Positions 28,501-46,597 of a stretch of 64,000 nt of DNA are shown one piece after another (position 1 is the stretch's first letter; each line of letters starts with the position of its first letter). The stretch covers positions 20,338,001 through 20,402,000 of the forward strand of contig CM097885.1 of NCBI GenBank assembly GCA_044892525.1, in the 5' to 3' direction. The stretch is from Schmidtea polychroa (taxonomy: Eukaryota). Under the pieces are notes generated by a model. That model was not told the origin of the DNA and ran no database searches. It saw only the letters and a program-made list of their open reading frames with translations. A program made the position numbers and the translations under genes.

Positions 28501-31500
28501 TGCAATATTTAAATGTGAATTTCAGTTTGACTTTACTTTTTACAAGGGGACAGGCAATCCTAGGGAATTTTACCTCAAACTAATTTATCCTAAATCTTGC
28601 GCACCACGAAACAATTGAAATTAGCAATGTTATTTGTAATACTTTTTTTTTTTTCTCTTTTTCACTTTCAAGTTCGGGAATTTTGTTTTCCAACTGAAAT
28701 TGGTCAATAAAATCTAAAAAATGAACTTTTTTCAATTTTCACCACTGATTTTTATTCAATTGATATTGATTTTATTAAAAAACTTAATATTATTGGCAGA
28801 CCAATAAAATTGAAATCTGAACCAAATAAATGAAATATGCACCAAATTTAATTAATTGTTTTTAACTGATAAATGCACCAAATTTAATTTATTTTAAAAA
28901 TTTAAAAATTTAAATTTAAAACAAATATTTTAGTTGAAAATGAAGCAAAAAATTGGTTGTGTGTATGAGTTTTGAGTACGACCAGTCAGTATGTTACCTG
29001 TACCCCTAGGGGGTCCAAATACTTTGTCGGATAAACTCATAATATATGTAAATGTCAATATGACTATAATTTAAATTAATTTGGTTCATTATGTATTTAT
29101 TTAATTGGTGCAAAATCAATTAATTCGGTGCGTCATTAAATGGTAGCCTTTAATAAATACTATATATTTGTATTATAAGAACTTTTTTTTCAAATTTCAC
29201 CACTGATTTATTTTCCATTGTAGTAGTTATGATATTGCATCAAAGGTCAAAAACGAAATGGGCAATCAATTTATTTGTATATTCAGTTATCTTATAAAAT
29301 TAGTTAGTGATTACGCAAACTCTCCTATTTAAAGAGTTCTACAATTATATAATAATAAATTTTAAGTAAGACTCAATTGTGCTAATTTTTGAATTTTTAT
29401 ATTTTTTACAGAAATATTGAATTTCACTATTTTTTGAACTTTTGATTAATTTTTTTGCACCTAATTAGTCTTTCATTTTACCAAATTTTTAATTGATTTT
29501 TTCTTTCAACATTTTGTGAATTTAAATGACATCTGCACTTATTTGCATATTATACATTTTTATTAATCGAATAATTTTGTAACATTTTCAGTTTTTATGT
29601 TTTTCAAATTTTAAATCTCCTACCCCACAATTGTCATTATATTTTTCAAATTTTGTATTCTCTTAGCTACAAGACATTTCTTTTGAAACGCATGACAAGA
29701 TGTACTATTAAAAAAATAATCCAAAATTCTTTTTTTCATTTTTCCAAAAGTTACAATTATTGGACTTTTAACATATTTCTAGACAAAATATAAAATAAAA
29801 TCAATAAAAATTTTTCAGTCTGTTAGTAAAAAACCGACTGGATAACCAAAACACGAAAAACAAATGTTGGATATTTCAAACAAAAAATTATGTGTATCAA
29901 TTTTCCAGAAATAAACAGTTTCTGTTAGCATTGTAATTTAAAACTAAATCGAAATTCCCGGTTGCCCATTATTTGCAAAGTATTTTCACAAAATTTCGAA
30001 AATATTTTGTTTTAATAAATATTACACTAGCGATTTTGGTATTGGAAATCCTCAGAAAGGGGATATTTATCTGTCCTAATAGCCTATAATGTACGTATGA
30101 TAATGCTTACTGGTATTCAACAGCTTGTTTTTGACATCAAATTTTTTTTGTAGGAGTGTTCATTGAATTACTATTGGTAATACATTGTTATTTGTTAGAA
30201 TAATATTTCCCTACTTATTGTTTTACACAACCAATTTTTATCATTACATTTATTTTTTGTTAAATTTCTTCTGAATTTGTAATTTTTTCCAATGTCGGTT
30301 TTATTACAACGAAAAAAACCAATGAAAACACCGAAAAAATCTGGGTAATTAATTGAATGAATTAAATTAATTAATTAATAAAATTTCCCTTATTGTTATT
30401 GATTATTAGAAAAATTCAACCGAAAACAATCTTTGCAAAATATTTCCCCGTAACTTACTCACATGAATGGAATTTAAATATAAACAACGTTGCATTTGTT
30501 ATCGGATTTTGTGAATTTTATTTGACTTTTTTAACACATTTTGTTAATGATTTCATTATTTTAGCGGTGAAAGACAGACGGATTTGGTGTAATTCTCAAC
30601 TTCTAGAAATCGAAGTATTATTTTCTATATTAAATTATTTTTTTTTGATTTATTAAATTTCTAATTATACTTGTTTCTGATCTTTATAATAAATATTTTA
30701 ACTACTCACTATAGAGAGTTGATTGAAATTTATAATAAATATTTGATTTATTTAATCATGAATAGAAATATGAATAAAAGTGGGTTACTAAAAATAAAAA
30801 AAAAGTACTTTAAAATTACTCAACACATTATTTCAACAAAATGAAGTTAATTTTTGGCCATTCCCACTATCTAAACCATAGCAATATTTATTAAAAAGCT
30901 TGACCTTGAATCAGTACAGATATCGATGTTTTTTTTGATATTCACGAATTTTCGGAACTGCTTTTTTCAATTGATTTTGATATTGGTACTATTAGCAATA
31001 TTATTCATATTTGGTACTGCAGTTGTAGTTCTAGATTATAAAGTTATACTCTTACCGTGTGAAGAGTTTTCATAAAATGTTTCGATGTCAAATTATGACC
31101 CTTTCAGTATAGAAAAAAGTCATTGTTGTGCCCGTGGATATGAATAAAATCTCTGCTAAATTGCGAAATAAATTTCCACAAGCTTGATTTTAAACTGTAG
31201 TTACTAGATAATAGGACTTTTAATAAAAATCCGTTATCTAGAAAGCTCAATATTGTGTTTTCATCAAAATAAATATTTCGTTATCTCCAGTTTCTGAAAT
31301 CCAAATTTTGTGAATATTGATGATTGGCATGAAATCCATTAGAAAAGTAGGTAACAAGATTGTAAGTTACAATGTATTACCAATGTATTATTACAATTTG
31401 TAACTTGAATTTGTTTATGCTATTTGATTTGGAAAATTTGAATTTAATATGATTTGAATTTCATAATCTTCGCCAAACTGATAATTTGCTGATACTAAAG

Positions 31501-32706
31501 ATTTATTTTTTGATATTTGAAATGAACAAAACGTGAATACGTAAAAATATCTTTTATTAATTAAACATATTATAACATTTAAACAAAGTTGTATTTTTCA
31601 TTAATAACCACGCATAAATAAAAATCATTAGATTTTTTTAATTTAATTTTGAAAATTGTTTAAAATCACGATTTCTGCGGTAATTTCCATTGCTGCAATT
31701 TTTAAGAAAACCAGAGGAGTTCGAAAATACAATATCAAGGAAAATTACAAAGAAAAAAACGGTCCGTTGTTTTACAGAGAAACAAAAATAATAGTTATAT
31801 TTTTATTTCTGGCCTGTTTAAACTAGCAAATCATTCGAATGTGTCCCATATTGAATATACCCAATTTCCGTAGTAGAAATATTATTTACTAAGGATTATT
31901 GTAAATATTGGTTCACATCCTTGGTAAATTTTCTTTTTTTTATTCGCACAACTTTGCAATGTTGATTCAACAGGTTAATTATATTTACAAGTGTTTGGTG
32001 TTCGCTATTATTTTTTCAGAAAGTAGAGTATTGGTTTCTTTCACTGAAATCTGCGAAAAGACTTTTTAAAAAAGATTTTTTTGTTTTAATTTGCTGTCTA
32101 TTTCCTTTCAGTGCTTCTAAGAATAGTTTTCTATGAAATTCATTGTAAACAATTGAAATAATTTTTGTAAATTAATAATAAAATCTTTGCTGATGTACAA
32201 CAATAAAATAATTCACTTTTATTATGTCCCACTGTCATCTTTAGAAAACACTTTTAAAAGTTTAAATTATCTAAATTAAATAAACAAAAAGTTAATTCTG
32301 TAAATTTGACATAATTAAATTTTCTAGTGCTTTAAAATGAAATGAAGTAAGATTTATTTATCAAAGAAAGGTAAATACCTTTTTCTGTTATTGGCCTTTA
32401 GGCAACGAATATATAAAGTGAGCAAAAAACTTATGGAAACATGAGAAAGAAATTTGTTTTTTTAACCATTTTGTTCTACTAATGCTTAGAATTCTCTCCT
32501 TTTATATAATATTTTGTTGCTATTGCTATTTTGTAAACATACTAAATTTTGAATAAACAAAGTTTGGAAACATTTTACATTTCTATGATTTTGTTTAAAT
32601 GCATCAATTATACACTTGTTTCTGGAATTTTCTACGACTGTATGAAAACAGAATTTATCATTTCATTTCCATTCTAAACGAAGTTTCTTTACAACTCAGC
32701 AGACTC

Positions 32707-33219
32707 ATGCCTACAAGAAAGTATTTATCAGGCAATATTCGAGAACGAATGGTGGACCTTTATATTAATAGTGGAAGGAAGAAAATTGACATTGCGAAGA
32801 CGTTTTCAGTGCAGCGCAGTACTGTGACTAAAGTGATCAAAAATACCAAAAAATACCGAAACCCATTTATAACCGCCAAAGCCATCCAAAACAACTTGAG
32901 CCTCCACCACATGAGCAAGCAAATTATTCAAAACAGACTGATGGGCGTTGGACTTCATGTACGCAACCGTGCTAAAATGGTATATGTATATGCTAAGAAT
33001 CGCCGGGAAAGAATCGCCTTTGCCAAAAAGCACATTAGCTGGACTACACAGCAATGGTCTTCTGTACTCTGGTCTGATGAATCAAAGTTCAAAATTTTTG
33101 GTTCCGATGATCGATGTAAGGTTTGGCGCCCAAATCGAGAAAAGTACAATCCTCTCTACCAAAAACCAATTGTCAATCACGGACATGTTTGTAAGATTAT
33201 AGATCAAATTCATGTATAA
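32707..33219 (+). pseudogene. Truncated Tc1/mariner transposase, duplicate copy
   Basis: Same ORF at +20079. Confidence 0.9.
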
Positions 33220-35325
33220 GGTACACTATATTTCGGTACAGCATTTATCTAAACTAAAATATAAAATATTTGATTAAAGCCGTGCCGAAATATCGTGTAT
33301 CTTATTTATTTTCTTGATCTATAACATTACAAACATTAATATGAAAATAAATAAAACATCAAAAAAGGAAACAGAGTTAAAGGTGACCAAAGAATTAATG
33401 ATTCGTGTTTCCTACTACGAATTTATTCTAAATATATTTGAATTCATTAATCTTTACCCACTTGATAAGGTAAGAATACGTCTCTCAAGCTCAGGAATCA
33501 ACTAGCATGATTAGTGGCTTTAACCCAATGTGTTCAGAGGGATTTTCTCCGAAATTATAAGGCACAGATCAAAAGTATTACCATCATTAATTAGAACTTA
33601 TAATAACAAACATTTTGAGATTTAAAACTAATTTTTATCATATTCTGATCGTTACATAGAGTTACAATTTTAAAAATAGGCCTTTTTCAAAGTGAAATAA
33701 AACATTGAAGTTGAAGGAAAAAATTCATAAAACATATTTGTTTTGATAGAACATCTATCGATCATATATGGGTAGAAAAACTTCATAGAAAATCTAAGTA
33801 GAACCTGAGTATTTTTCAAAATAGTAAAACCTACTTTTGAAAAATTTAGAATTTTTTTATAAATTTGAATAATTTAGAAATCTCTGAACCAAATTTGCAA
33901 ACGTCCTCGGAATTTCATTTTAACAATGCTGAAAAAATACAACATTTAGCCTTTAGAACTTTTCTAGAAAATTTTAGAATGTTCTAGAAGAAAATATAAA
34001 TAGCCATCAATAAATCATTTTATAAATGTGAACAATGTGATGTTGGCTTGTGCATTACAACTTGTTTCAAATATTATCACACAAATCTTACTTACTAATA
34101 TTATATCAATCTTATTCAACCATAATATTAAACTATTTTAGAATTTTTTCAAAAAAAAAGAATTTTTCAAATTTTTTAAATGTTTAAAATAATTATCATG
34201 AAGTAATTTTCCAAAAAAATTTACATTGGTTCAAAACAATTCGGGACTCAAAGATTTAATGATTTATTTAATTAATTTGTAATGTATTAATAACATTGAT
34301 TAGAGATCTTCCATCGGTGTAAAAACATATTATATTCGTACTTATCCTTTCATTTATCACCTGACTATAAATAGAATTTCAGTCATTAATCAACCGGGAA
34401 TGTCACCAAACCTCCAGTAAACCATAACCAGTCTTTCATTTATATGTTTCTACGATAACAGTTCCATCAATAAATATATTTTTTTATATTTCCTATAAGA
34501 TTAATTTTTTTTAAAAGAATATCATAAAAATACGTTAATATGTATTCTAGAAACATTTTGAATTTAGATTATTTGTTAACTTTTTAAGGAGAAATCTCAA
34601 AACGGAATGGATGAGTATCATTTCAAAATACTAAACGATCATCAAGCTGTGATTTCTGTCAATGGATCTAGCAATCAAGAAACTTCAGTTGATAAAGAAA
34701 TGGTTAACAATATGCCGAAGACAGTCCGATTGAGATTCGCTTCATTATGTTTAGAGAAGATACAAAACTGTCAACTCACGGTTGATAATAAATTTATTCC
34801 GTTAAATTCAAGCAATAAATCAGGAAAATCTTGAAATTCCGGAATTAATGGGAATAATAATATTCATTTGACTCTCATTTCATTTTTATGAATTTTTTAT
34901 CAAAACTGACTTTTTCAGTGTATTTACTAAGATTTTATTATATTATTAGTAATATTATTAGTAATTAAAAAAATATATAATAGTTTATTATATTATTAAT
35001 AAATGTAAACATTTACTTTTTTATTTCTATTAATTCACATAATTATTTTCATTATTCTATCTAATGAGAGGGGTAAAAATCGTTTTAATTTTAAATTGTA
35101 TAATTAAATCCAGTTTCCTTTAGGCCAGTGGTGCCCAAACTTTTTATCAAGTGGGCAACTATTTAAATGAAAAAGTCTTTGCGGGCACATTTTTGAAAAA
35201 TTAGTTAATAGAAAAATGATCTTATAACAATCTTTTTATTAGGAAACATGCATTTGTATTAAAAATTTAAAATAATAAAAATAATAATGTGAAACAAAAC
35301 AAACAAATTTATTTATAACATCATT

Positions 35326-36237
35326 TTAATGCGGCTTTTGAATTTGAGTCTGGCTAACAAGTTGATCAATATCAGGATTGATTTTTGAATTTGATAATAG
35401 AATGAGGTTTTCCAAGTGAGCATCAGTGAGTGAACATCTGAATTTGCTTTTTATGTAGTTCATTGAAGAAAATGTCTTCTCACAAATGTAAGTTGATCCA
35501 AATTTGACCACAAACCGGAGTGCCATGTTGTTAAGTTCAGGATAGTCATTTTTTGGAACAAGCTTCCAGAATGCTTTTAAGTCGGGTGAAATAGGTGATT
35601 CACAAAGCTCTTGAAACTTTCTCTTTAATCCTGTGTGGTTTTGAATGTCAGTAATTTCCATCTGTATTTTTGGAGAATACTTGCTGATTTCACTTTCTGA
35701 TATAGAGAATGGATTAATGAACAATAAAATGTTATCCTTCTCTGCCTCAAAGTCAGAAAATCGAGAAGAAAATGAATGAGACAAATTCATAATGGCAAGT
35801 TTGTATTTTTCATAGTCCAAGTTGACAGTGATTGAACTTTCAAGTTGAAATTTCTGAAGCGTGGGGAAAAGATCCAGATTTCCTTGAGAAAGACTGTTAT
35901 AAAACAGTTTTAATTTTGCCTTAAATGCATTGATTTGATTGAATAGTGTTGGGAACAAACTATTTTCACCTTGCAATCCTGTGTTCAAGATGTTCAGGTA
36001 ATTTATGACATCAACAAGAAAAGCCAATTCACTCAACCAGGAATTGTTTTTCAAAAGATCACACTCGGTAGGCAACTCTTTTTTTTCTTCCAAAAATTGC
36101 AGTACTTGGGTCCTTAACTGGAAAAATCTTGACAGCATTTTTCCCTTTGACAACCAGCGAACAGAGCAATGGAGCAAAGGTTCACCACAATCATCGGTTT
36201 CCTCTTCAAACAGGGATCGGAACTCTCTTCTATTTAG
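35326..36237 (-). pseudogene. hAT transposase, 3' half
   Basis: VRWLSKGKMLSRF, LAFLVD, FGSTYICEKTFS. The tracked ORF start lies in the viral TIR and is artefactual. Confidence 0.93.
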
Positions 36238-36570
36238 AGTAGTGAGGAATCTATGCACCCCAGCACCCCCACCCTAAAAAAAAACAGCGCTATTGACCCA
36301 TATTTTCCACATTTATATGCTTTTTTACCCCATATTCTTCACTTTTTTTAACTTTTAAACTTTGTCCCCTATTGCCATTAACCCTTAATTTCTTCCCTTA
36401 AAAGTAAAAAAGTTCGGAATAGATGTATTCATAGATTAGTAATTCCGAGAAAAGGTAACGGGGTGCATAGATTCCTCACTACTTGGTCTTAAGGATTTAA
36501 TGTTATAAGGATTTAATGTTATAAGAATATCAGATTACCTAATTCATAATGATCTAGGTCGCCTGATCAC
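36238..36570 (+). repeat. Polinton left TIR (333 bp)
   Basis: Reverse complement of 51090-51423; three differences noticed. Confidence 0.97.
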
Positions 36571-36616
36571 CTTAAGGTTTTGAAAGTTTTAAAAATAAAA
36601 AATTTTATGAAATAGT

Positions 36617-36678
36617 AAAACTGCTCTGAGAGGACAGTGGTTTTTTTTTTTTTTTTTCACTGTCCTCTCAACAGTTTT
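36617..36678. other. Hairpin with a poly-T loop next to the left TIR
   Basis: tgagaggacagtg (36627-39) / cactgtcctctca (36658-70) perfect 13-bp stem, extended by aaaactg/cagtttt. Confidence 0.8.
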
Positions 36679-37150
36679 TTTTTGATCCGGATCATTTTTT
36701 TTTATTCAACCTCTTTCGTTTATCAAATCTCTTCCAATATACAAGCTGGCCAGACTCATACATCAGAATCAATCCGATAATAGCAGCACGCCTTATTATT
36801 CGCTTCTCGCTCGAATACGATTTCATCGGCGTTTTAAGTGTGCTGCTCGAAAGTACAAATGAATTCGAAAGCGAATCCGAAAGAGGTCCGAAAACAACTG
36901 AGAAATAAATGTGCACATTACCGGAATCGATCCGGGGGTGTTCGAAAGACAGGTGGCGATAATTACCGGTTCGCCACCATCACACGTTTCAATATTTTTT
37001 TTTTCATATTTATGTTTAAAAAATAATTAATTAATAAAAAAATAAAATAAAATAAAATAAATAAAATAAAATATACAAGTACTTTATAAATATAAGATAC
37101 CCACACTATTTTCAATATTATTTTCAAATTTTTAATATTATTTTATGTTG

Positions 37151-37234
37151 AAAAAAAACTAACCTCAGATGTGATTTGAACCACTATCCATTTGAACCAC
37201 TGTGCCAGTCTATTCCCACTGCGCCATCAAGGTT
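37151..37234 (-). ncRNA. Candidate Pol III tRNA-like small RNA, unit 1
   Basis: A box TGGCGCAGTGG (37226-37216), two GGTTCAAAT B-box cores, T8 terminator, 5'/3' complementary ends (AACCTTGAT…ATCTGAGGTT). Confidence 0.55.
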
Positions 37235-37480
37235 TGAATTTTTGTCATTTTTTCGACTATAAATAATCGATTCAAGTTCTTTAACTCTTTCCTGTAATTG
37301 TTTCATTTTCTTCAATCTTATATCAGCAACATCTACAGCCTTCATATAAAAATGTCGATACTTTTCATTATCTACCATCAACTCTTTGATGTATTCTAAT
37401 GGTTCTTCTTCTCTTCTTTTCATTCTCTTATGTTTAACTTCATTCAATTCATTTCTCATTCTTTTTTTTAACTCATCCAT
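37184..37480 (-). CDS. Small charged coiled-coil viral protein, function unknown
   Basis: 98-aa ORF with tataaaaATG context like the other viral genes. Confidence 0.6.
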   Translation of the reverse strand: MDELKKRMRNELNEVKHKRMKRREEEPLEYIKELMVDNEKYRHFYMKAVDVADIRLKKMKQLQERVKELESIIYSRKNDKNSNLDGAVGIDWHSGSNG

Positions 37481-37637
37481 TTTTATAAATATTTTTTTTA
37501 TTGGATATATTAATTTTTGGTAGTTAAAACGTTTTTGATCTTAAATTTCCAAGAGTTGCCGTTGACCAATCTCCTTAAAAATTTGTACAAGTACTAAATC
37601 GAGTATGCTGATCAATATTTCGTTAAAAAAAAATTTG

Positions 37638-37718
37638 AAAAAAAATGACCGAAATGGGATTTGAACCCATTGGTATTGGCAATGCAGTCGAGTGCTATTA
37701 CCACTAAGCTATACTCAA
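37638..37718 (-). ncRNA. Candidate Pol III small RNA derived from tRNA-Cys(GCA), unit 2; not a canonical tRNA
   Basis: GAGTATAGCTTAGTGGTAATAGCACTCGACTGCA resembles the tRNA-Cys 5' half; perfect T-arm ATGGG-TTCAAAT-CCCAT; T8 terminator. Acceptor and anticodon stems do not pair. Confidence 0.65.
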
Positions 37719-37870
37719 TATAAAATAAGTTGTTAATGTGTGACTATTTATTGATGAAATTAATAATTAATTATTCATTTTCTCGACAACTACCACTCAG
37801 ATCCATCTGAAAATTTAAATATATACTAAAATCAGTACGCTGAATCAGATTCCGTTGAAAAAAAATATCG

Positions 37871-37943
37871 AAAAAAATTGACCAAAATCGAAAATTGAAC
37901 CCGGTGATAAAATTGAAGCCTATTCCCACTCCGCTATAATGGC
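37871..37943 (-). ncRNA. Candidate Pol III tRNA-like small RNA, unit 3
   Basis: A box TAGCGGAGTGG (37936-37926), imperfect B box GGTTCAATTTT, T7 terminator; flank is homologous to that of unit 2. Confidence 0.5.
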
Positions 37944-37999
37944 TTACAAAATATATTTAATTAATCCTATTTTGTGTGTGTAAATTTTAATATATAAAA

Positions 38000-39292
38000 A
38001 TGAATAACATAAATCTTAAAATTCAAGAAAAAAATAAATTAAATCTTGATTATAATAAAGAATTTACTCATGAAATTAAAAAAAATGATATTTTAAAAAT
38101 CTCTCCAACTTCAGGATCTATTGCAAACTTAAATCGTAGGGGTGATATAGTTTTTCAATCTCTTCAAACATCAAACCCAATAGATATTTGTAATGCCAAA
38201 TTATATTACAAAGTAGAATTAGAAATTGAAGCAAACAAAGATATAACCCTAGAAAATAATTTCTTTCCAAATTTATTCTCCAACATGAGATTAAAACTAG
38301 GATCATCAGAAATTGAAACTGTTTTGCATCCGGGAGTATATTCTACAATGTTAAATTTTATTTTGACTGGTTGTGATTATAAAAACGAATATGGTGAATT
38401 AACAGGTTGGATTCCTGATGTTAATAAAGGGGATTTAGATAAAGATGGTTTAGATGTAAACCATGGTTACCATAAAAGAGCTGAACTTTATAAATCTAAA
38501 AAATTTGAAGGTTATTTTGAATTAAAACACTTGTTTGGATTCCTTCAAAACTATAATCGTATACTTCATAATGTTTTTATAGAATTCATCTGTAATAGAG
38601 TAGAAGGTGATAAAAGATTGTTCTATGGAGCTGTAGATACAAAAGCTAAATTAAAATTATCAACACTTGAATTACATATACCTGAATGGACATTAAACCC
38701 ACATTCTGTGATTAAACTCCTTGAAAGATTAAATTCCAACAAGTCTATAAATGTAAATTATTTAAATAGAATCTGTAGTGAATTTAGTATGACAGAGGGT
38801 TCAACATATTCTATAAAGGTAGCAAATTTAGCATACCGACCAAGATATATCTTGATTGGATTCAAAGAAACAGATTCATCTTTCCAAAAAAATAACAATC
38901 TATTTATTCAAAAGATTGGAGATGATAATTTAAAAACAATACAAATTCAATTAAATAGTTCTTATTATCCAATAAATAGAATGGAATTTAATATTGAAAA
39001 TAATGAAAACATATTCCCATATCTAAATTATATTGAAACATGTTATGATTTCAAAGTTGAACCGCAATTAAGTTTAGAAGATTTCAAAAATTTATATTCT
39101 ATATTTTGTATAAATGTATCAGACCAAGATGATCGATTAGCCATAAATAATGTTGATGTTACACTTCATGTAACAAAGGATTCTAATTTTAAAGCTAAAG
39201 TATATACATTAATATTAGAAGAAAAGAAAATAGAAATGAAATTATATGGTGGAAAGATTTCAATAATCGAAAATGTTAGGGGAGATTCTTAA
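38000..39292 (+). CDS. Major capsid protein (double jelly-roll, hexon-like)
   Basis: 430 aa; LENNFFPNLFSNMRLKLG..EIE, PRYILIGF, IQLNSSYYP and IFCINVS resemble Polinton MCP motifs. Confidence 0.88.
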   Translation: MNNINLKIQEKNKLNLDYNKEFTHEIKKNDILKISPTSGSIANLNRRGDIVFQSLQTSNPIDICNAKLYYKVELEIEANKDITLENNFFPNLFSNMRLKLGSSEIETVLHPGVYSTMLNFILTGCDYKNEYGELTGWIPDVNKGDLDKDGLDVNHGYHKRAELYKSKKFEGYFELKHLFGFLQNYNRILHNVFIEFICNRVEGDKRLFYGAVDTKAKLKLSTLELHIPEWTLNPHSVIKLLERLNSNKSINVNYLNRICSEFSMTEGSTYSIKVANLAYRPRYILIGFKETDSSFQKNNNLFIQKIGDDNLKTIQIQLNSSYYPINRMEFNIENNENIFPYLNYIETCYDFKVEPQLSLEDFKNLYSIFCINVSDQDDRLAINNVDVTLHVTKDSNFKAKVYTLILEEKKIEMKLYGGKISIIENVRGDS

Positions 39293-39321
39293 TATAATCC
39301 CTGATATTTTAACATTTTAAA

Positions 39322-40706
39322 ATGTCTCTAAATAAATATTGGAGATGTGAAAGTTGTAATTGTCAAGTTACAAGACATCATAAAACAAGTCATTTAAAAA
39401 TAAAAAACATACAGGAGGCGATCTACAATCTTCAAAAACAACATCTTCAATATTAAAACCTTTTACTACAGAAAAATATCCAGGTGAAAGACATTTATTT
39501 AAACACAACTACACCGGACCAGGAACAAGATTAGATATTAGATTAGATGAAAATAATAATCCCAAACAAGGAGAAGAACCAATAAATAGAATTGATCAAG
39601 CAGCTTTAAAACATGACATTGCATACAATTCAACAAATCTTAGAGATAGACATGTTGCAGATGTGAATTTAATACATGATTTAAATAGTATCCAAAATCC
39701 ATCAACCCAAGAAAAGATTCAAAGAGCTCTAGTTAAATTAGCAATGAAAGGTAAGATTTTCATAGGCTTAGGACACAGTCCGATCACCATGGGTGCAAGA
39801 CTTCCTAGGAAAGCAAAAGATGTTGCTTATAAAAAGATTATCGAACAAGCAGAGATTGAAAGATCCCTCGAGAGTACAGCCAGGACTAGTTTATTAACCC
39901 CAACAGAATCACAAATAAAATATGCCAACGAATTACACCATGAATTTAGAAAAAATAAAAAATATTTAAAAGTTCAAGTACATGAAAAAGATCAAATATG
40001 GTCTGCTGATTTAGTCTTTATGCCCAAATCATCAGATCCTGAAAAATATAAAATAATTTTAACTGTAATAGATTTATATACAAGATTTGCTTTTGCAAGA
40101 TGTTTAGAAAATAAAACAGGATATTCTATTACAGAAGCATTTGAAAATATATTTGAAGAAAATCAAAGAATCCCAAAATATTTATGGTGTGATAAAGGAA
40201 CAGAATTTTATAACAAAGTTTTTACAAAGTTTTTAAATGAAAATGATATTAAATTATATTCAACAGAAAACGAAGGAAAAGCAGTCGTAGTTGAAAGATT
40301 AAATAGAACATTAAAAAATAAAATGTGGAAATATTTTACTGCTATTGGAAAACAAAAATGGAACAATGAATTGTTACAAAAGATTGTAAATGAATATAAT
40401 AATGATGTACATAGTTCTATAAAATTAACACCTTTAAATGCTTCCATGAAGCCTTAAACCATTAAAGTGGTAAATATTGAAAATAATGTTATTGAAAAAC
40501 CAAAGTTTAAAATTGGTGACCGAGTAAGAATATTTAAATATAAAAATAAATTTGAAAAAGGATTCACAGCAAAATGGACAAATGAAATTTTTATTATAAA
40601 TAAAATAAATTATACAACTCCAATAACATATAGCATCTTTGATTTAAATAATGAAAAAATATTAGGTAGATTTTATAATAATGAACTACAGAAAACAGAT
40701 TTTTAA
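39322..40706 (+). pseudogene. Zn-finger / phospholipase A2 / retroviral-type integrase fusion, disrupted
   Basis: ATG 39322 MSLNKYWRCESC…HLK; frameshift ~39400; then NYTGPG…DQAALKHDIAY in frame with WSADL, WCDKGTEF, VERLNRTLK; in-frame TAA at 40455-57; continues to KFKIGDRVRI. Confidence 0.88.
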
Positions 40707-40717
40707 GTCGACAAGCC

Positions 40718-41509
40718 CTAAAACAAACTTTTCCATATTTCAGCTTCTTCTCTATCCAAATAAATATAATTATATTTTTCTTTCCAATGATTATCAACAA
40801 ACATATCAAACATATTCTTATCAGGTTCAACATTTGAAAATAAATCATTATAAATCATATTCTTATCACGGCGATCTAATTTAAAAAATATAAAACAATT
40901 GGAATTATTTCTTATTGAATTTTTATCTAAAGCATAATATGTTTGAGATATATAAATAACATTACAATTATTATGTCGACCTCGTGTAAAGTAACTCTTT
41001 TGAATCTCTTGATTTTTCATATTAACAACATCATCAAATATAACTAGATTCTTTTTATCTTTAGGAAGTAAATCACAATGTAAAACATCTTCAGGTTTAT
41101 TAGAGAATAAAACTTGAATTGCCTCCTGCCCTTCTTCACAAATATAATCATTTTTATTACTAATATCTGATTCTAAAATCTTTTCCTTATACCAATCAAC
41201 CATATCACAAGGTTGAAAAACTTCTTCAGGACACCTATGTTGATTTTTAAAAATATCAATTATTGCTTTTTTAGTTAATTTATTTTCAAATCCACATTTC
41301 AAAAGTTGTAATTCTGGTTGATTTATGGTTGTAGAATAAAAGATTAAATTATTATAATCTAAAAAATCATCTTCAAGTAACATTCTCAAAACAAGTACAT
41401 TCTTTCCACATCCAGAAGAACCAACAATTAATAATCTAAAATTATCAGGAAATACTTTATTATTGAATTTACTCTTATGTCTATTTAAAATTGGTTTCCA
41501 AGTATCCAT
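40718..41509 (-). CDS. A32/FtsK-like genome packaging ATPase
   Basis: Walker A GSSGCGKN, Walker B VIFDD, RGRH motif, ISQ. Confidence 0.95.
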   Translation of the reverse strand: MDTWKPILNRHKSKFNNKVFPDNFRLLIVGSSGCGKNVLVLRMLLEDDFLDYNNLIFYSTTINQPELQLLKCGFENKLTKKAIIDIFKNQHRCPEEVFQPCDMVDWYKEKILESDISNKNDYICEEGQEAIQVLFSNKPEDVLHCDLLPKDKKNLVIFDDVVNMKNQEIQKSYFTRGRHNNCNVIYISQTYYALDKNSIRNNSNCFIFFKLDRRDKNMIYNDLFSNVEPDKNMFDMFVDNHWKEKYNYIYLDREEAEIWKSLF

Positions 41510-41525
41510 TTTTATTTATTATAAA

Positions 41526-42104
41526 ATGACAACTGAAGAATCTTTGCAAGAATTAATAAATTCAAATAAAAATAAATCAGTAGTAATTGATGGTAAAAAA
41601 TATTTTATTGGAAAACATGTAAAAGAACAAGTTAGAGCGAAGCTCCACGAAGCTAAAGAAGGTGGCATTCTTCCATTAGCTGCTTTAATACCTGCAATCA
41701 TTGCTGGTTTATCAGGTGCTGCTGGAATAGCTGGAGGAATTGCAACTACAGTTCAAAAAGCTAAAGAATCTCAAAAGACAGACCTAGAAAAAGAAAAACT
41801 ACAAACTGAAATCGATTCAATGAAGAAGGTAGGGCAAGCTAAAGGGGGAGTGTCCGTTGGAAAGGGTCTCTATCTTAATCCATATGAGGGGAGTCGGCAA
41901 AAGTCTCAGGGCAAAGGTCTCTATCTTGATCCTTATAAAGGTAGAGGTTTAAATGATTTTTTAAAAAATCAAATTTCTACATCTGAATCTTTATCTTCAA
42001 AAGATAAAGAAGATTTAAAAAAAATATGTAAATCTTTAAAGAATGGATGCCTTTGTAAAACTAAAAATGGTAAAGGATTATACTTGAAGCCCTTCGAACT
42101 ATGA
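41526..42104 (+). CDS. Adenovirus pX-like membrane-active core protein
   Basis: GGILPLAALIPAIIAGLSGAAGIAGG plus three GKGLYL repeats; the first ATG is at 41526. Confidence 0.75.
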   Translation: MTTEESLQELINSNKNKSVVIDGKKYFIGKHVKEQVRAKLHEAKEGGILPLAALIPAIIAGLSGAAGIAGGIATTVQKAKESQKTDLEKEKLQTEIDSMKKVGQAKGGVSVGKGLYLNPYEGSRQKSQGKGLYLDPYKGRGLNDFLKNQISTSESLSSKDKEDLKKICKSLKNGCLCKTKNGKGLYLKPFEL

Positions 42105-42126
42105 TACCATTTTTGATACCATTAAA

Positions 42127-43008
42127 ATGGTATATGAAGAAAGATTAGCACTTTTAAAAAAATTACAATCAGAACAAGATAAATATAATAAAAAAGATAC
42201 AACTCAACATGCTGAATCTATAATATTAAATGAGGTAATAACACAACAACAGGGGCCAACAATTAAAGCTATAAAAGAGTTGGAAGATTTCAATGAGCAA
42301 GCAAAATTTAAAGAGTTAGAAGATAAAAAACAAAAAATAAAAGAACTAGAGTGGCAGGATAAAGAAAAAGAATCCAGTGAAAACCATCCTGAAAGAAATC
42401 AAAGAAAACGCAGAAGAATTTCTAATGTGGAAGAAGAAGAAATGTTTTTAAAAACAAAACCTCTTAAAGTTGATCCTAAAATTAGAGATGATTTACCTCC
42501 TTCAATTAGACCCACATTTAATACTAATACTGAAGGATATCAAATAATAACAATTAATAAACAAAACTTTACTTTATATTCAAATTCAGAAAATAAATCA
42601 CGTATTCATTCACAAAATGTTTATAATAATGAATATTTAGACTTTGAATTTACAGATGATTTTTATAGATTACTTTGTGGATATTCTTCAGAAGATGTTG
42701 AAGAAATTAAAAAATATTTAAATTTAATAAGATTAATAAGAGCTAGTTCTAAAGCAAAATATATTCAAGATTTAAAGAATTATTTAAATAAAAATGAAAA
42801 GGGTTATGTTGTTACAGAGGGAGAGGGATTAATTAGTGAAGGTGGTAAACCAAATCCCATCAATCTTTTTATTGAATTAAGAAAACTATTAGCTGCAAGG
42901 AAAGCAGGACATAATAATTTAGATTCTGATATTTTAAAGATTTCTAAAGATTTGTTAAAACAAGGAATAATTTCAAAAGATAAATTTAATAAGTATACGA
43001 AGTTATAA
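42127..43008 (+). CDS. Conserved Polinton/adintovirus protein, putative virion core
   Basis: GEGL site and C-terminal LLAARKAGHNN…LLKQGII motif; basic NLS-like RKRRR. Confidence 0.7.
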   Translation: MVYEERLALLKKLQSEQDKYNKKDTTQHAESIILNEVITQQQGPTIKAIKELEDFNEQAKFKELEDKKQKIKELEWQDKEKESSENHPERNQRKRRRISNVEEEEMFLKTKPLKVDPKIRDDLPPSIRPTFNTNTEGYQIITINKQNFTLYSNSENKSRIHSQNVYNNEYLDFEFTDDFYRLLCGYSSEDVEEIKKYLNLIRLIRASSKAKYIQDLKNYLNKNEKGYVVTEGEGLISEGGKPNPINLFIELRKLLAARKAGHNNLDSDILKISKDLLKQGIISKDKFNKYTKL

Positions 43009-43030
43009 ATACGAAGTTTTAAAATACAAA

Positions 43031-43495
43031 ATGACTCCTTCAATATTAGATTTTTTAAAAACATTTGGAATAAATGCAAAAACAAATTTTGATTTAAAAG
43101 ATTATGCAAATTATTTAAATTTAAAAATTAAAATATTAATGAATGATGAATTATCAAGTCTGGAGAGTCCCCTGAATATAATAATCAATTATCAAAATTC
43201 AAATGAAAAAGGATCTCATTGGGTTTGTATATATAAGAAATCTATCTACTTTGATTCTTTTGGGATTAAACCTACTAAAGAAGTTGAAGATTATCTCTTG
43301 AGGGGTTCTCCGATTGATTCCCCAAATGGTTATACTTTTAACTCTTTACAAGTTCAACCTTTGAATACTAAAATATGTGGTATTTTAAGTTTATATGTTT
43401 TGTATAGATTGAATAAGGGAGAGGGAAAGGGGCATACGCAGGATTTTGAATCTATAATTCAAGAAATTTATAATGATCTAGAATCTCTACTATAA
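43031..43495 (+). CDS. Adenain-like cysteine maturation protease
   Basis: GSHWV, YFDSFG and Q…CG catalytic motifs. Confidence 0.93.
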   Translation: MTPSILDFLKTFGINAKTNFDLKDYANYLNLKIKILMNDELSSLESPLNIIINYQNSNEKGSHWVCIYKKSIYFDSFGIKPTKEVEDYLLRGSPIDSPNGYTFNSLQVQPLNTKICGILSLYVLYRLNKGEGKGHTQDFESIIQEIYNDLESLL

Positions 43496-43543
43496 GGATT
43501 TTTACTATAAGGATTTTTACTATATGAATTTACTCCTAAAGAA

Positions 43544-44308
43544 ATGGAGCTTCACAACCCTCCGGAAGATAATTTTAAAAAAATGGTAAACATAATGTCA
43601 GATAAATATTCAAGAACTTTATCTATAAATTCAAAAGAATCAGAGTTTACTATAAACTTTCAAGATTCAATTAAATTAGATCAAAATTTAAATTATGAAT
43701 TGGGGCTATTATGGTTTTGTGCTTATAATACTATTTTTAATATAACTAAAGATAATAATAAATTTACTATTCAAACTCGTGATGGGCATAAACCAGAAAT
43801 TATAACAATAGAACCTGGGGCATATGAGATAAAAGATTTAAATGATATACTTTCTAAAAAAACAAATGAAGGTATTAAAATTAAAATGGATATACCAACT
43901 TCAAAATGTGTAATGACTTTGAAGAATATAAAAATTAGTTTTTTAGATAATTGTTTCTTTCACACAGTTTTAGGATTTAAACCTATGGATATAACAATAA
44001 AAGAAGATAAAATAATAACATCAGAACATATTATAAAAATAATAAATACAAACACAATAAATATTCATTGCGATTGTATAACAGGTTCTTATAATAATGG
44101 TAAACAAACAAATGTTTTATATTCCTTTCCCTCAAACACAGTTCCTATGGGATATAAAATAGTTGAAAGAATGAATCCTCCAAATTATTTACCTTTATGT
44201 AGAAAATATATAATGGATATTAATTTTAAAATTCTTAATCAAGAAGGAGAATTGATTGATTTTAATGGAGAAGAGATTTCAATGTATTTACATTTGAAAC
44301 AGGTTTGA
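43544..44308 (+). CDS. Minor capsid protein (penton)
   Basis: IHCDCITGSYNNG…LYSF…GYKIVE…YLP…LIDFNGE resembles Polinton penton motifs; the start could be the second Met. Confidence 0.82.
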   Translation: MELHNPPEDNFKKMVNIMSDKYSRTLSINSKESEFTINFQDSIKLDQNLNYELGLLWFCAYNTIFNITKDNNKFTIQTRDGHKPEIITIEPGAYEIKDLNDILSKKTNEGIKIKMDIPTSKCVMTLKNIKISFLDNCFFHTVLGFKPMDITIKEDKIITSEHIIKIINTNTINIHCDCITGSYNNGKQTNVLYSFPSNTVPMGYKIVERMNPPNYLPLCRKYIMDINFKILNQEGELIDFNGEEISMYLHLKQV

Positions 44309-44332
44309 AGATTCATTTTAAATTATTAATAA

Positions 44333-45343
44333 ATGAGTTCTTATATTCCATGTAATAGAGGTGGTGGAACAATAAAAACATGGTTTAATACAGAAGAAAT
44401 ATTAACTTTAACAGAAAATAAATATATTAATGAAAGAGGTGATTCAATGAAGGGTGATTTAATTTTAAATGGACACAAGATAAAAGAATTATCTTTTCCA
44501 ACTGATGAAGCTGATGCAGTTAATAAGAAATATGTAGATGGTGTTAAAAAATATACTGATTTAACAACAACAAGAATTGAAAGTTCATTAACAACAAAAA
44601 TTGATTCAATGGAATCAAAGCTTAATAATATCGAACAACGATTTAATGATAAATTTGACAAGTTACAAAGTCTGTTAACTGAACAAGTTGTAAAGTTAAA
44701 TACTGCTATATTAAATTCTAAAGATAAACAAGTTATGAATACTAAATTTAATACAATATATAATAAAATAAATGAGATGATTACATCATTTAATAAAAGA
44801 ATTTCAAATTTAGAGTCTCATGGAACACACATTAACACCACACATAGTATTAGAAAAAGAGCTGCTGAATTAGAACAGAATAAAACATTATTACCCCATA
44901 CATATAAACATTTTATAGAACCAAGTTTAATAACAACAAACAGTAAAGAATGGGGTGTTTTTATGGTTGTAAAAATTATTGATCCTTATTTCTTTTTGTT
45001 TGATGATGATAATGAAAGAATGAAATGGTTTGTGAAATGTGATTATAATAGTAAGCTTGAAAAGGGTGATGTTATAATGACTAGTTATGATTTACCACAC
45101 GGAGATTGGTATGTTAATACTCATTCACATGGACTACATAAAGTTAAAAGTAAGAATATTCATTTTTCTAGTTCACTTGTACAATATATAGATTTAATAT
45201 TTTATGAAAAAAAGGTTGATGTTGATGAAGTTCGTAAAGCATTGAGAGAATTGTATAAAGATATCCTCTCAACAAGAGTTTCTTTTGATATCCGAGTATT
45301 GGTACCAGATGGTGCTCAGAAGAATAAAGTCTTATTTTTTTAA
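44333..45343 (+). CDS. Putative fibre/spike protein
   Basis: GDSMKGDLILNGHKI…DAVNKKYVD fibre-type motif, long coiled coil, globular C-terminus. Confidence 0.6.
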   Translation: MSSYIPCNRGGGTIKTWFNTEEILTLTENKYINERGDSMKGDLILNGHKIKELSFPTDEADAVNKKYVDGVKKYTDLTTTRIESSLTTKIDSMESKLNNIEQRFNDKFDKLQSLLTEQVVKLNTAILNSKDKQVMNTKFNTIYNKINEMITSFNKRISNLESHGTHINTTHSIRKRAAELEQNKTLLPHTYKHFIEPSLITTNSKEWGVFMVVKIIDPYFFLFDDDNERMKWFVKCDYNSKLEKGDVIMTSYDLPHGDWYVNTHSHGLHKVKSKNIHFSSSLVQYIDLIFYEKKVDVDEVRKALRELYKDILSTRVSFDIRVLVPDGAQKNKVLFF

Positions 45344-45351
45344 TTATTAAA

Positions 45352-45948
45352 ATGGAAGAAGTAAGAGAAGAAAAAATTTACCCAGAATTGAGATCATCAG
45401 GATATTATTCTTCCAAGGCCTCGGCTCCCACAGAACTTGAAATTATGAGAGTAAAAGAATTTAAATTAGAAACCTTACATTTACAAGATTTATTAAAGCA
45501 TTATAAAAAAATTAAAAATAGATGGAATAAAGGGAATACAGTTTTAAAAGTTATAGGTTATTCTTTAGGATTTGCATCTGCAATATTAACAGTTATTTTA
45601 CCCATAACTTTACCAGTTGTTACTCTTGCACCTGTAATACTTGGAAGTATTTCTGTGGCTGATGGTTTCTTAACTGAAATAGTTTCATTATCTTATACTT
45701 CTAAAAAGAAAAGTTTATATAGAGAAGTTTGTTTATCAATAGAATTAGGAATCTCTAAATTATTTTTATTTCAATTAAAAGCTTTGGAAGATGGAATCCT
45801 GACAGACGAAGAAATAATGAAATCAAATCAAATAATACAAGATATAAAGAATGAGGTTATAAGATTAAAAAGGGAGGGCATGGTGGCTAATGTTATAAGT
45901 AATAAAAAAACATCTCGAGAAAAATGGTTAAAGAATTCTTACTTATAA
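45352..45948 (+). CDS. GasderminX-like membrane protein
   Basis: IYPEL…SAP N-terminus, central hydrophobic hairpin, KALEDGILTDEE motif (family assignment from recall). Confidence 0.6.
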   Translation: MEEVREEKIYPELRSSGYYSSKASAPTELEIMRVKEFKLETLHLQDLLKHYKKIKNRWNKGNTVLKVIGYSLGFASAILTVILPITLPVVTLAPVILGSISVADGFLTEIVSLSYTSKKKSLYREVCLSIELGISKLFLFQLKALEDGILTDEEIMKSNQIIQDIKNEVIRLKREGMVANVISNKKTSREKWLKNSYL

Positions 45949-46042
45949 AATGGGTGTATTTTTAAAAAAGTAGATCAGGTTGCTATAGTTGCTTAAATTA
46001 ATTGTCGACATTTTATTATTAAAAAATTAAATATCGTTGGTT

Positions 46043-46597
46043 TCAGTTATGGTTGAAAGCCAACCTATGAATCATTAATTTATGATCTTTAAATTCTTTA
46101 TCACTTAGACCTTTTATATATTCAGGATCAGTATTAAAATATTTAAGTTCTAAACATATAGGATTAAAAACTTGAGAATATAAAGGTTTCTCGATTTCTC
46201 TCTCGGGATAAATAATTTCAACATTATAAATATCAAGATCAGTAATCTTTGTATCATATAACTTATTCAACTTTTCTAGATTTTTTATTATAGGGATTAA
46301 ATTATTTCCAATAGGTAGAGTTGTCTTTAAATCACTTAGTATGAATCTCTTATCATCATAATTTGATAATGATATTTTTTGAGATTCTATCAAGTGAATA
46401 TCATGGTTTTCACTTTTAAGTTGATGTATTTCATCAATTTTATCTTTATGATTTGGATTCAATGTATCTATATAATCTTGATGAGAAAGATTCTTTGCAA
46501 CCACTCTCTGTATTCCTTTACATCTGTTATCCTTTAAATTAGTAATATTTTTTATAATTTCAAAAATGTTATTTTCTTGATTTTTAGTTTCCATCAT
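46043..46597 (-). CDS. Stand-alone diverged paralogue of the PolB C-terminal ~170 aa
   Basis: Shares KGIQ, YDDKRFILSDLKTTLPIGN and ELKYFNTDPEYI with the adjacent PolB; has its own tataaaATG. Confidence 0.85.
   Translation of the reverse strand: MMETKNQENNIFEIIKNITNLKDNRCKGIQRVVAKNLSHQDYIDTLNPNHKDKIDEIHQLKSENHDIHLIESQKISLSNYDDKRFILSDLKTTLPIGNNLIPIIKNLEKLNKLYDTKITDLDIYNVEIIYPEREIEKPLYSQVFNPICLELKYFNTDPEYIKGLSDKEFKDHKLMIHRLAFNHN

Follow-up and report, generated by a model that had tools for sequence, protein, structure and literature searches.

The locus raises the question of what three tRNA-derived, Pol III-type units are doing in one arm of a virus-like transposon, beside its capsid gene, and whether they yield RNAs that act as RNAs, recruit the Pol III machinery for its own sake, or do nothing. 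The stretch of DNA analysed (the window) is 64 kb long. The features referred to below are listed here; the minus-strand coordinates of units 1–3 (u1–u3) take in the first T-run.

36238–51423, no strand assigned: complete Polinton/Maverick of 15,186 bp, with TIRs, target duplication and gene set.
38000–39292, plus strand: major capsid protein gene (PF21738, E 2.9e-26), divergent from the units.
37943–37871, minus strand: unit 1 (u1), tRNA-derived, Pol III-type; A box TAGCGGAGTGG, B box GGTTCAATTTT, GGTCAA, T7.
37718–37638, minus strand: unit 2 (u2), tRNA-Cys(GCA)-like; A box TAGCTTAGTGG, B box GGTTCAAATCC, GGTCA, T8.
37481–37943, minus strand: two tandem modules (unit, T-runs and 130–160 nt downstream), found in one lineage only.
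37184–37480, minus strand: small coiled-coil ORF, 98 aa here, the variable tail of which enters u3.
37233–37151, minus strand: unit 3 (u3), tRNA-derived; A box TGGCGCAGTGG, B box GGTTCAAATCA, GGTTAG, T8.
~36990–36920, minus strand: candidate unit 4, more weakly tRNA-like; A-box-like TGGCGAACCGG, B-box-like GGATCGATTCC, spacing 43.
36566–37253, minus strand: conserved arm block (hairpin, small ORFs, unit 4, AT-rich repeats and u3), common to divergent lineages.

The host element had been read as a Polinton, and all features of a Polinton/Maverick were present: TIRs of ~361 nt (95% complementary), a 6-bp target duplication (ATTTAG at 36232–36237 and 51424–51429), a double-jelly-roll capsid protein, an rve integrase, an A32-type ATPase and a protein-primed PolB. 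The element, with termini AGTAGTGAGG...CCTCACTACT, is inserted into a hAT transposon, pieces of which were found at 35326–36138 and 51364–52400, and units 1–3 lie in the left arm of its 15.2 kb. The family numbers roughly three thousand copies in the genome, which differ in unit number (0 to four). The capsid gene gave 3,312 candidates in its own genome, and the 98 that were scored were all at least 99% identical and open. Its ATG (38000) was measured to be 56 nt from the 5' end of u1, close to the distance read earlier. On the other side, u3 is positioned directly 3' of the small ORF in every lineage; this ORF, for which a Pfam search gave no match, has a 73-aa core common to both lineages and a C-terminal tail that stops at differing points within u3. 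The arm block occurs at one or both element ends, and inverted u3 pairs 10–15 kb apart numbered at least ~14 among the first 100 u3 sites listed, a count read off the site list. In L126, the arm block was 93% identical and the adjoining polymerase side just 70%. The only strong hairpin (36610–36683) lies ~470 nt past u3 and ~240 nt past unit 4, and between positions 37150 and 36620 the differences between lineages were merely scattered.

The A boxes of u1 (37936–37926), u2 (37711–37701) and u3 (37226–37216) fit TRGCNNAGTGG exactly, a motif with 4 matches in the window against 0.10 expected, all of them inside the unit region. GGTTCAA starts at 37901, 37667 and 37182, respectively, with an additional copy at 37198, where u3 holds a B-box-like duplicate. 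The composite pattern AGTGG-N15-40-GGTTCAA-N10-30-TTTTTT gave 14 matches in the 64-kb window, overlaps included; they fall at exactly three sites, every one on the minus strand within 37151–37930, and 100 dinucleotide-preserving shuffles gave none. The three co-oriented minus-strand units with A box, B box and T7–8 were thus borne out. In all three, the B box lies at 30–60 nt downstream of the A box, as expected of type 2, and T7, T8 and T8 terminators follow 0–2 nt behind u1, u2 and u3, with back-up T-runs 5–6 nt further on in u1 (37865–37858) and u2 (37633–37625). By these elements (A box, B box and T-run), u1–u3 classify as putative type-2 Pol III units. Two details of the earlier description held in part. 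GGTYA runs directly into the T-run in u2, and one additional base intervenes in u1 and u3; the motif behind the A box is GAATAG or TAATAG in all units here and GCTAG in two common u3 haplotypes. The B-box consensus is given as GGTTCGANTCC (PMC3395662). The u1 B box, GGTTCAATTTT, is without the terminal CC, and that of u3 reads GGTTCAAATCA or GGTTCAAATCC. In their usual forms, u1–u3 all have an A-to-B spacing of 44; in the window's u1 a 9-nt deletion, private to this copy (0/74 other sampled copies), reduces it to 35, and the long form with spacing 44 was present in 49 of 55 sampled unit-bearing copies. Unit 4 has strong D-like and T-like hairpins and no long T-run adjacent, and was almost invariant between lineages. 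Host tRNA genes are arranged in tandem arrays and terminate in T6–7 runs, so the layout of the units resembles that of working host Pol III genes. A capture from such an array was considered and set aside, since the likeness judged by eye was limited to the T-runs, though host arrays exist.

The three units are paralogous and belong to a tandemly duplicating module of ~220–240 bp. Downstream of u1 and u2, the two sequences agreed at 109 of 140 aligned positions (~78%). When the three units were compared ungapped, position by position, 16 of 22 box positions were invariant against 3 of 34 other positions (Fisher p=1e-6), in agreement with the earlier view of preserved boxes and terminators and a scrambled between-box sequence. 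By segment, the invariant positions were 8/11 in the A box, 8/11 in the B box and 5/6 in the next six bases, against 2/27 in the rest of the between-box sequence and 1/7 in the 5' acceptor; pairwise, 6–11 of 27 body positions and 8–10 of 11 box positions were identical. Between u1 and u2 the boxes (17/22) were no better kept than the downstream flank, and since that flank is still ~78% alike, the unit body has diverged faster than its surroundings. A 1,245-bp satellite carries a diverged copy of the u2 module, in which differences affected 23/61 body against 38/208 flank positions (p=0.003) and 4/30 box and T-run positions, the module having been found by a pattern that demands box cores and T-run. 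Among three shared u3 haplotypes, the A box varied at the R position alone and the B box at its last base alone, towards the consensus. In the lineage with the 70%-identical polymerase side, the arm beside u3 had just scattered differences and most differences fell within the u3 body. All of these contrasts between box and body come from few independent events (three paralogues, three haplotypes and one diverged module).

The same observations bear on a neutral origin, in which a tRNA gene or pseudo-tRNA was acquired once, copied by replication slippage and is now decaying, and the boxes seem kept because of the young age of the copies and because the handful of local duplications and deletions that altered the bodies missed them by chance. 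We consider this unlikely, though a serious contender. Small duplications and deletions of the kind it calls for were seen in u1–u3 and in the modules (the 9-nt deletion in u1, a 10-nt insert in u2, the B-box-like duplicate in u3, and module duplications and collapses), and the near-equality of box and flank identity between u1 and u2 suits it. It sits poorly with a body identity at chance level (2/27 invariant) against 16/22 in the boxes, with exactly 44 nt between the boxes in the usual forms, scrambling notwithstanding, with a T-run of at least 7 right behind all three units (doubled in two), and with a body that was faster than the non-coding flanks in three separate comparisons. The box/body signal could also reflect a body that is unusually mutable or patch-replaced instead of boxes that are protected. 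Within 28 young copies, diversity per bin was flat (0.02–0.08) over units and flanks and uninformative on selection; among 51 copies, shared variants were concentrated in u3, with almost none in u1 and u2, which fits poorly with a simple reading by transcription-associated mutagenesis. As to u3 being a mutation hot spot, a neighbouring block that is unusually conserved or homogenised is an equal reading.

The distribution of the units among copies speaks to two of the alternatives. Genome-wide counts, each followed by that of the control, were 2,944 and 0 for the 33-nt core of u2, 2,756 and 0 for the 3' 24-mer of u3 and, on the forward strand with overlaps counted, 5,589 and 22 for a generic unit pattern. 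Stretch 37507–37969, which holds u1 and u2, was absent with identical breakpoints upstream of 17 capsid frames of 456 aa and 2 of the 502-aa kind; the 456-aa kind made up 17 of the 98 scored matches, on four large contigs. In this lineage the capsid gene is intact and at least 99% identical, so u1 and u2 are not needed for spread, a dispensability that also suits neutral relics. The u3 A box was found in 19/19 copies of the unit-bearing lineage and in 16/19 of the other sample. Units 1 and 2 are thus accessory, and u3 is old and nearly universal; absence from sister copies, which had been named in advance as grounds for giving up the proposal, applies to u1 and u2 in one lineage and does not apply to u3.

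An origin of the units as copies of a tRNA-derived SINE of the host, inserted into the Polinton, is extremely improbable. SINEs typically have a tRNA-derived head in which the stems are broken and the boxes kept, and the units, decayed tRNAs that keep their Pol III boxes, resemble such heads. All 40 retrieved loci were, however, in Polinton context (10/10 found by unit 2 and 30/30 best loci found by the unit-4 region), which upholds the earlier assignment of the units to the family and not to a host SINE. The ~56 sites identified among the first 100 pattern matches listed were all u1, u2, u3 or the satellite-borne u2 relative, and no unit was found in the ~49 kb of non-Polinton window sequence. 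The units differ from SINEs in that they are not self-dispersed and have neither body nor tail, and with the terminator directly behind the head a SINE transcript would end before its body. Unit 4 with its downstream sequence was also considered as a free SINE and rejected, its 30 best loci all being inside Polintons.

The likeness to tRNA is strongest in u2. It aligned end to end with the Rfam tRNA model (RF00005; 26.7 bits, gathering score 29, E 0.0075), with GCA at the anticodon position, D and T arms intact, and acceptor and anticodon stems broken (non-standard pairs by cmscan in 3/7 and 3/5, respectively), which agrees with the earlier reading of u2 as resembling tRNA-Cys(GCA), with an intact T-arm. 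A commoner u2 variant with a 10-nt insert reached 32.4 bits, above the gathering score. Units 1, 3 and 4 had no Rfam match at E up to 10 in the window or at E up to 1 in four loci, and ARAGORN reported 0 tRNAs in the window and 0 in 6 loci. The low tRNA scores that had been expected were therefore seen for u2 of this window and, as no match at all, for u1 and u3, but not for the commoner u2 variant. Minimum-energy folds of the units were not cloverleaves. Compared with shuffles, fold z-scores were +0.69 for u1, −0.04 for u3 and −2.8 for u2, the last forming three hairpins and no long duplex.

These folds weigh on the proposal that the units make RNAs acting as RNAs, in the manner of adenovirus VA RNAs or of the tRNA-like RNAs of murine gammaherpesvirus 68 (MHV68), as decoys for an RNA sensor or for RNAi or as precursors of small regulatory RNAs; we regard this as improbable. 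Adenovirus VA RNA I and II likewise stem from Pol III genes carried by a virus, with A and B boxes inside the gene; these RNAs are highly structured and measure ~160 nt. The units are ~75 nt long, two of the three have no stable fold, and tRNA was their sole Rfam match: over 36200–38100 no other family, including VA RNA (RF00102), matched at E up to 10, and neither a covariance-model match nor a long stable stem was found. Unit 4, considered as a copy of a 7SL head, gave no SRP RNA match at E up to 10. The unit bodies, considered also for targets within the window, had no match of at least 12 nt, sense or antisense, in the rest of the 64 kb. Acceptor-stem changes among u3 haplotypes, in an alignment judged by eye, do not preserve pairing and look non-compensatory. 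Given no Rfam match, unfolded u1 and u3, non-compensatory acceptors and no complement of at least 12 nt, a sequence- or structure-specific RNA product is unlikely, and the VA-RNA analogy of the sequence-only reading is not sustained. On the other side, u2 does fold better than its shuffles, and a fast body under a fixed promoter could reflect changing targets. Among the runs on record as RNA, none contained 37140–37975. Coverage of 36600–39400 was taken from contigs of two runs guessed to be RNA and two of unknown kind, a measure blind to small RNAs, strand and ends; in the two small runs with the guessed RNA label, the u1–u2 bins were almost uncovered and 36694–36975 was best covered.

It is also very improbable, in our view, that u3 is a tRNA-like 3'-end processing signal of the small-ORF mRNA, cut by RNase P or RNase Z, with u1 and u2 as roleless copies. 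Such tRNA-like processing by RNase P or RNase Z is seen in MALAT1 mascRNA, u3 does stand directly behind the small ORF in every lineage, and its ends in the haplotype of the window can form a 7-bp stem with one bulge. The stem seems poorer in haplotype h2, with no compensating change (by eye), u3 as a whole folds no better than shuffles, and the conserved A box, spacing and T-run would be left unexplained.

A close viral parallel to an RNA product is MHV68, which has eight non-aminoacylated tRNA-like genes read by Pol III near the left genome end (PMC4337559). Like the MHV68 vtRNAs/TMERs described there, the Polinton units are clustered close to the left end of a linear, virus-like dsDNA genome, resemble tRNAs but do not decode, and contain A and B boxes internally; this likeness speaks for an RNA product. 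The tRNA-like parts of MHV68 keep a tRNA-like shape and are followed by at least one miRNA hairpin before the terminator. The Polinton units have broken stems, an unconstrained body and an immediate T-run, so that no TMER-style hairpin follows the tRNA-like part and no pre-miRNA hairpin was found within the predicted transcripts of u1–u3. Expression has been demonstrated for MHV68, and the Polinton units are known here from sequence alone.

The reading that we favour, with confidence only a little past the halfway mark, is that these are tRNA-gene-derived Pol III units kept as promoter and terminator, which would recruit the Pol III machinery and have an effect on chromatin rather than yield a VA-like RNA. 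The units would be the remains of one tRNA gene, Cys-GCA-like judging by unit 2, that joined the left arm of the Polinton family and multiplied by tandem duplication of the ~220–240-bp module. The part kept would be the A box, the B box at the canonical 44-nt spacing and the immediate, often doubled T-run, and the part lost the acceptor and anticodon stems, with the between-box sequence scrambled. TFIIIC and TFIIIB most likely still assemble on the units, and Pol III most likely makes RNAs of ~70–75 nt, non-decoding, with little structure and U-tract ends. If selection spared promoter and terminator alone, the useful property would be Pol III recruitment itself, and the benefit may lie in a stretch of chromatin, kept open or insulated, that adjoins the two divergent promoters (of the capsid gene and the small ORF) and faces the end of the element. 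What the sequences show directly is the anatomy of the units, their paralogy, their membership in the Polinton, the copy numbers, the difference between boxes and body, and the absence of stable folds; selection on the boxes, transcription of the units and an effect on chromatin are what we infer from these patterns. The units fit better as candidate TFIIIC/Pol III chromatin sites beside the capsid promoter than as a source of VA-like RNA.

A precedent for such an effect comes from yeast, in which tDNAs and ETC sites stop the spread of heterochromatin and block enhancers, and extra-TFIIIC sites tend to sit between divergent genes (PMC3395662). Likewise, u1 and u2 lie between the capsid gene and the small ORF, and u3 faces the element's end. 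ETC sites need an extended B box alone, whereas the Polinton keeps whole units with A box and terminator; of the features of a tDNA/ETC-type barrier, it is by analogy the position alone that fits the units. A bolder version, which we hold as doubtful, is that the Polinton keeps full Pol III units as sequence-independent, TFIIIC/TFIIIB-bound devices that would keep a patch of the integrated element accessible in the face of small-RNA-guided heterochromatin. Polintons rank among the most strongly silenced targets of a planarian PIWI protein (PMC8532177). The units would then face outwards in one or both arms, with a doubling between the promoters of the capsid gene and the small ORF. That the body diverges faster than its flanks would in this case be a footprint of transcription-associated mutagenesis, a process described for active tRNA genes (PMC6130373).

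A protein search returned capsid relatives at 97%, 74%, 73% and lower identity, of which the 74% relative belongs to another organism, its match in the present genome being just 75–76%; no relative of the capsid protein was found in a viral contig collection. Among 37 metagenomic capsid relatives, just 18 of which had at least 500 nt upstream, no tRNA and no A-box/B-box/T-run unit was found, and this 0/37 adds to the points in favour of neutral relics. The array had been thought undescribed for Polintons. Searches of the open literature other than bioRxiv supplements gave no description of Pol III or degenerate tRNA-like arrays in animal Polintons, and to that extent the claim stands; tRNA genes are, however, reported in Polinton-like viruses, virophages and related mid-size dsDNA viruses (PMC12220804; PMC8502044), with 558 tRNAs in a scan of 8,300 PLV genomes (PMC12220804) and tRNA genes flagged in a figure legend (Fig. 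6 of PMC8502044). These are likewise tRNA genes carried by Polinton relatives, are predicted to work and are read there as codon-usage helpers. Here ARAGORN found none, the Rfam threshold was passed by u2 alone and in one variant, and the array, which duplicates in tandem, belongs to an endogenous element of an animal. Virus-borne tRNA and tRNA-like genes are thus already known, and a degenerate array in an animal Polinton is a variant of them.

If the units work, an animal element of Polinton/adintovirus type has taken over the cell's simplest type of promoter, and would be a DNA-transposon counterpart of the Pol III genes of herpesviruses and adenoviruses. Thousands of near-identical copies that vary in unit number constitute a natural experiment on barrier and anti-silencing effects. 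Should the bolder, anti-silencing version be true, the genome would gain several thousand Pol III/TFIIIC sites from a single family. The thousands of modules of A box, B box and terminator that the family contributes could affect how TFIIIC is distributed and how the genome folds in the host. Even with inert units, the locus is still a clear case of tRNA-gene capture and tandem amplification in a virus-like transposon.

The 64-kb window was searched for an A-box core, 15-40 nt, GGTTCAA, 10-30 nt and T6 in succession. This composite pattern matched only three places, each on the minus strand (37151-37930), and had no match in 100 shuffles of the window. The A-box consensus TRGCNNAGTGG had four matches in the window, all within the unit region, against 0.10 expected. 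Because the composite pattern was absent from the shuffles and the consensus exceeded expectation, the three units are not explained by chance, and the co-oriented set with A box, B box and T-run described in the sequence-only reading is real. The units sit in the left arm of a Polinton.

Units and associated features
37943-37871, minus strand: u1, unit with A box, B box and T-run
37718-37638, minus strand: u2, unit with A box, B box and T-run
37233-37151, minus strand: u3, unit with A box, B box and T-run
about 36990-36920, minus strand: unit 4, weaker fourth tRNA-like unit
37480-37184, minus strand: small coiled-coil ORF between u2 and u3
38000, plus strand: ATG of the capsid gene
36238-51423: complete Polinton/Maverick, with termini, TIRs, target duplication and genes
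46073-46372 and 46673-46972: duplicated polymerase segments
C1:147000-148500 (L125, elsewhere in the genome): satellite with u2 module, array about C1:145.9-167.1 kb, at least 17 repeats listed

In both u1 and u2, a second T-run lies a few bases beyond the first. The window copy of u2 was aligned end to end by the Rfam tRNA model at 26.7 bits (threshold 29), with GCA at the anticodon position, good D and T arms, and broken acceptor and anticodon stems; the tRNA likeness and the low score had both been foreseen. No tRNA was found in the window by ARAGORN, and no Rfam family reached its gathering score anywhere in it. When carrying a 10-nt insert, u2 scored 32.4 bits, above the Rfam tRNA threshold.

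The Polinton, which interrupts a hAT transposon, has the ends AGTAGTGAGG...CCTCACTACT, terminal inverted repeats of about 361 nt and the 6-bp target duplication ATTTAG on either side. Its genes include a double-jelly-roll capsid protein, an rve integrase, an A32-type ATPase and a protein-primed PolB. On the minus strand, the order from the capsid gene is u1, u2, the small coiled-coil ORF, u3, an AT-rich stretch, unit 4, two small ORFs, a strong hairpin (36683-36610) and the inverted repeat. The coiled-coil ORF had no Pfam match; its 73-aa core is kept in two lineages with 15 replacements, mostly conservative (our own count), and its tail is encoded by u3 sequence, the stop position differing among copies. 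The same 10-mer, TATAAAAATG, starts the capsid gene (37993-38002, plus) and the small ORF (37478-37487, minus). The 184-aa ORF at 46043-46597 repeats the C-terminal end of the 932-aa polymerase ORF at 75% identity. Positions 1-15648 and 20080-35728 form a 15.6-kb direct repeat (99.97% identity, offset 20,079 bases), which is a recent segmental duplication ending about 500 bp before the Polinton.

The capsid protein had 3,312 candidates in the genome; 98 of these were scored, every one with an open frame and at least 99% identity. The u2 core occurred 2,944 times and the u3 3' 24-mer 2,756 times, with 0 occurrences in reversed-pattern controls. All loci retrieved with u2 (10/10) and with the unit-4 region (30/30) proved to be copies of the Polinton with arms 92-99% identical, and about 56 generic-pattern sites among the first 100 rows listed were all u1, u2, u3 or one diverged u2 relative. 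A scattered host SINE was therefore rejected as their source, and the units belong to the Polinton (40/40 loci), as had been proposed. The copy in the window departs from the usual form in two respects, judged from sampled copies: the 9-nt deletion in its u1 is shared by 0/74 other copies, and its u2 lacks the 10-nt insert present in 17/19 capsid-sampled and 15/26 unit-4-region-sampled copies.

The distance from A-box start to B-box start was 44 nt in all usual forms and 43 nt in two u3 haplotypes, and the three units were therefore comparable without gaps. Largely in keeping with the earlier claim that promoter and terminator are kept and the sequence between the boxes differs, invariant positions numbered 8/11 in the A box, 8/11 in the B box (16/22 together) and 5/6 in the next six bases, versus 2/27 other between-box and 1/7 5'-acceptor positions (boxes versus rest, p=1e-6); this contrast with the body rests on few independent events. 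Pairwise body identity was 22-41%, about chance for the base composition. Between u2 and its satellite copy, which was found by a pattern requiring box cores and T-run, differences were counted at 23/61 body and 38/208 flank positions (p=0.003), and at 4/30 positions of boxes plus T-run (p=0.027 versus body). Among three shared u3 haplotypes (35, 7 and 3 of 74 extracted units, 29 singletons left out), the A box varied at the degenerate R position only and the B box at its last base only, towards consensus. The expectation that boxes and T-runs would be better kept than flanks failed between u1 and u2, whose boxes match no more closely than the flank downstream. A body that changes fast may account for the anomaly as much as protection of the boxes does; on either reading, boxes and terminator are spared relative to surrounding bases inside the unit.

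The downstream parts of u1 and u2 match at 109/140 positions; each of the two units, with about 140 nt downstream, forms one half of a tandem duplication. Common to all three units are the motif after the A box and the GGTYA ending. Module number differs among the sampled copies: some have three u2 units at a 243-nt period, 5/19 in one sample have a doubled u3 module, and others have collapsed to a single module or carry deletions. One lineage, recognisable by the 456-aa length of its open frame at the capsid gene (17/98 scored capsid matches), lacks 37507-37969 (u1 and u2) with identical breakpoints each time; its small ORF is 10-15% diverged and its capsid gene nearly identical. Some sister copies thus lack u1 and u2, while the u3 A box was retained in 19/19 copies of one sample and 16/19 of another. 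In a further lineage, the block 36566-37253, including u3, is also present on the polymerase side, which is 70% identical to the window. About 14 inverted u3 pairs 10-15 kb apart, in our own reading of the first 100 u3 sites listed, suggest that some copies bear the block in both of their arms, with every unit directed at its own terminus; one such case was examined at sequence level. Some family members (L126, C1:4488600-4491000) carry the u3 arm block inverted at both ends, and therefore have inverted repeats of about 1 kb versus 361 nt in the window copy. Near the contig start, a 1,245-bp tandem satellite consists of a minisatellite of about 20-nt period and a 280-nt copy of the u2 module with flanks; that copy has diverged to 81% identity.

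The non-coding arm block 36620-37150, which contains two small ORFs (31 and 44 aa), showed only scattered differences between lineages whose polymerase side is just 70% identical, and could be a conserved transcript or cis element. In two small runs guessed to be RNA, its contig depth was far above that of the capsid gene, and contigs had a loose T12 end at 36695, adjoining AATAAA. The hairpin at 36610-36683 (minus), just inside the inverted repeat and some 240 nt beyond candidate unit 4 on that strand, has a 21-bp stem with one bulge and a variable-length A-run loop, followed by TTTT (-30.7 kcal/mol, z -8.1). One of its stem pairs was A-U in 32, G-C in 22, G.U in 3 and A.C in 2 of 59 copies, and is one compensatory change.

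The units had been proposed to yield VA-RNA-like small RNAs. Folding was no better than for shuffled sequence in u1 (z +0.69) and u3 (z -0.04), and u2 formed three hairpins (z -2.8) and no cloverleaf. The acceptor-like stem of the window's u3 looked poorer in another haplotype, by eye, without compensating change, and no unit stretch of at least 12 nt recurred elsewhere in the 64-kb window, sense or antisense. The weak folds of u1 and u3, the uncompensated stem and this lack of recurrence argue against a VA-like structured decoy or a guide RNA.

Capsid relatives (19-52% identity) were examined at 37 metagenomic loci, 18 of which extend at least 500 nt upstream of the gene; neither a tRNA nor an A-box/B-box/T-run unit was found at any of them. 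PMC12220804 reports that Polinton-like viruses and virophages carry tRNA genes, and PMC8502044 flags such genes in related mid-size dsDNA viruses, where VA RNA and polymerase III go unmentioned. The supposed novelty is therefore limited to tRNA-like Pol III arrays in animal Polintons, of which the literature searched gave no description, and does not extend to tRNA genes in such viruses generally. Neutral decay of the units must be taken seriously as a rival reading, since u1 and u2 can be dispensed with and the units seem lineage-specific.

The units are best read as putative type-2 Pol III units derived from tRNA genes and maintained for promoter and terminator. Host tRNA genes are laid out alike, each followed by a T6-7 run, and they too occur in tandem arrays. 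The long arrays at L118-L124 comprise tRNA-Arg(TCG) at a 278-bp and tRNA-Lys(TTT) at a 424-bp period, and one Arg-type copy reads Gln(TTG) through a single anticodon change. PMC3395662 assigns barrier and insulator activity to tDNAs and extra-TFIIIC sites, the extra-TFIIIC sites tending to lie between divergent genes; PMC8532177 lists planarian Polintons among the elements most strongly silenced via a PIWI protein. Since the RNA product looks unconstrained, we favour an effect in which factor and polymerase recruitment by the units would act on the Polinton's chromatin, which fits their position between the divergent capsid and small-ORF promoters and facing the terminus.
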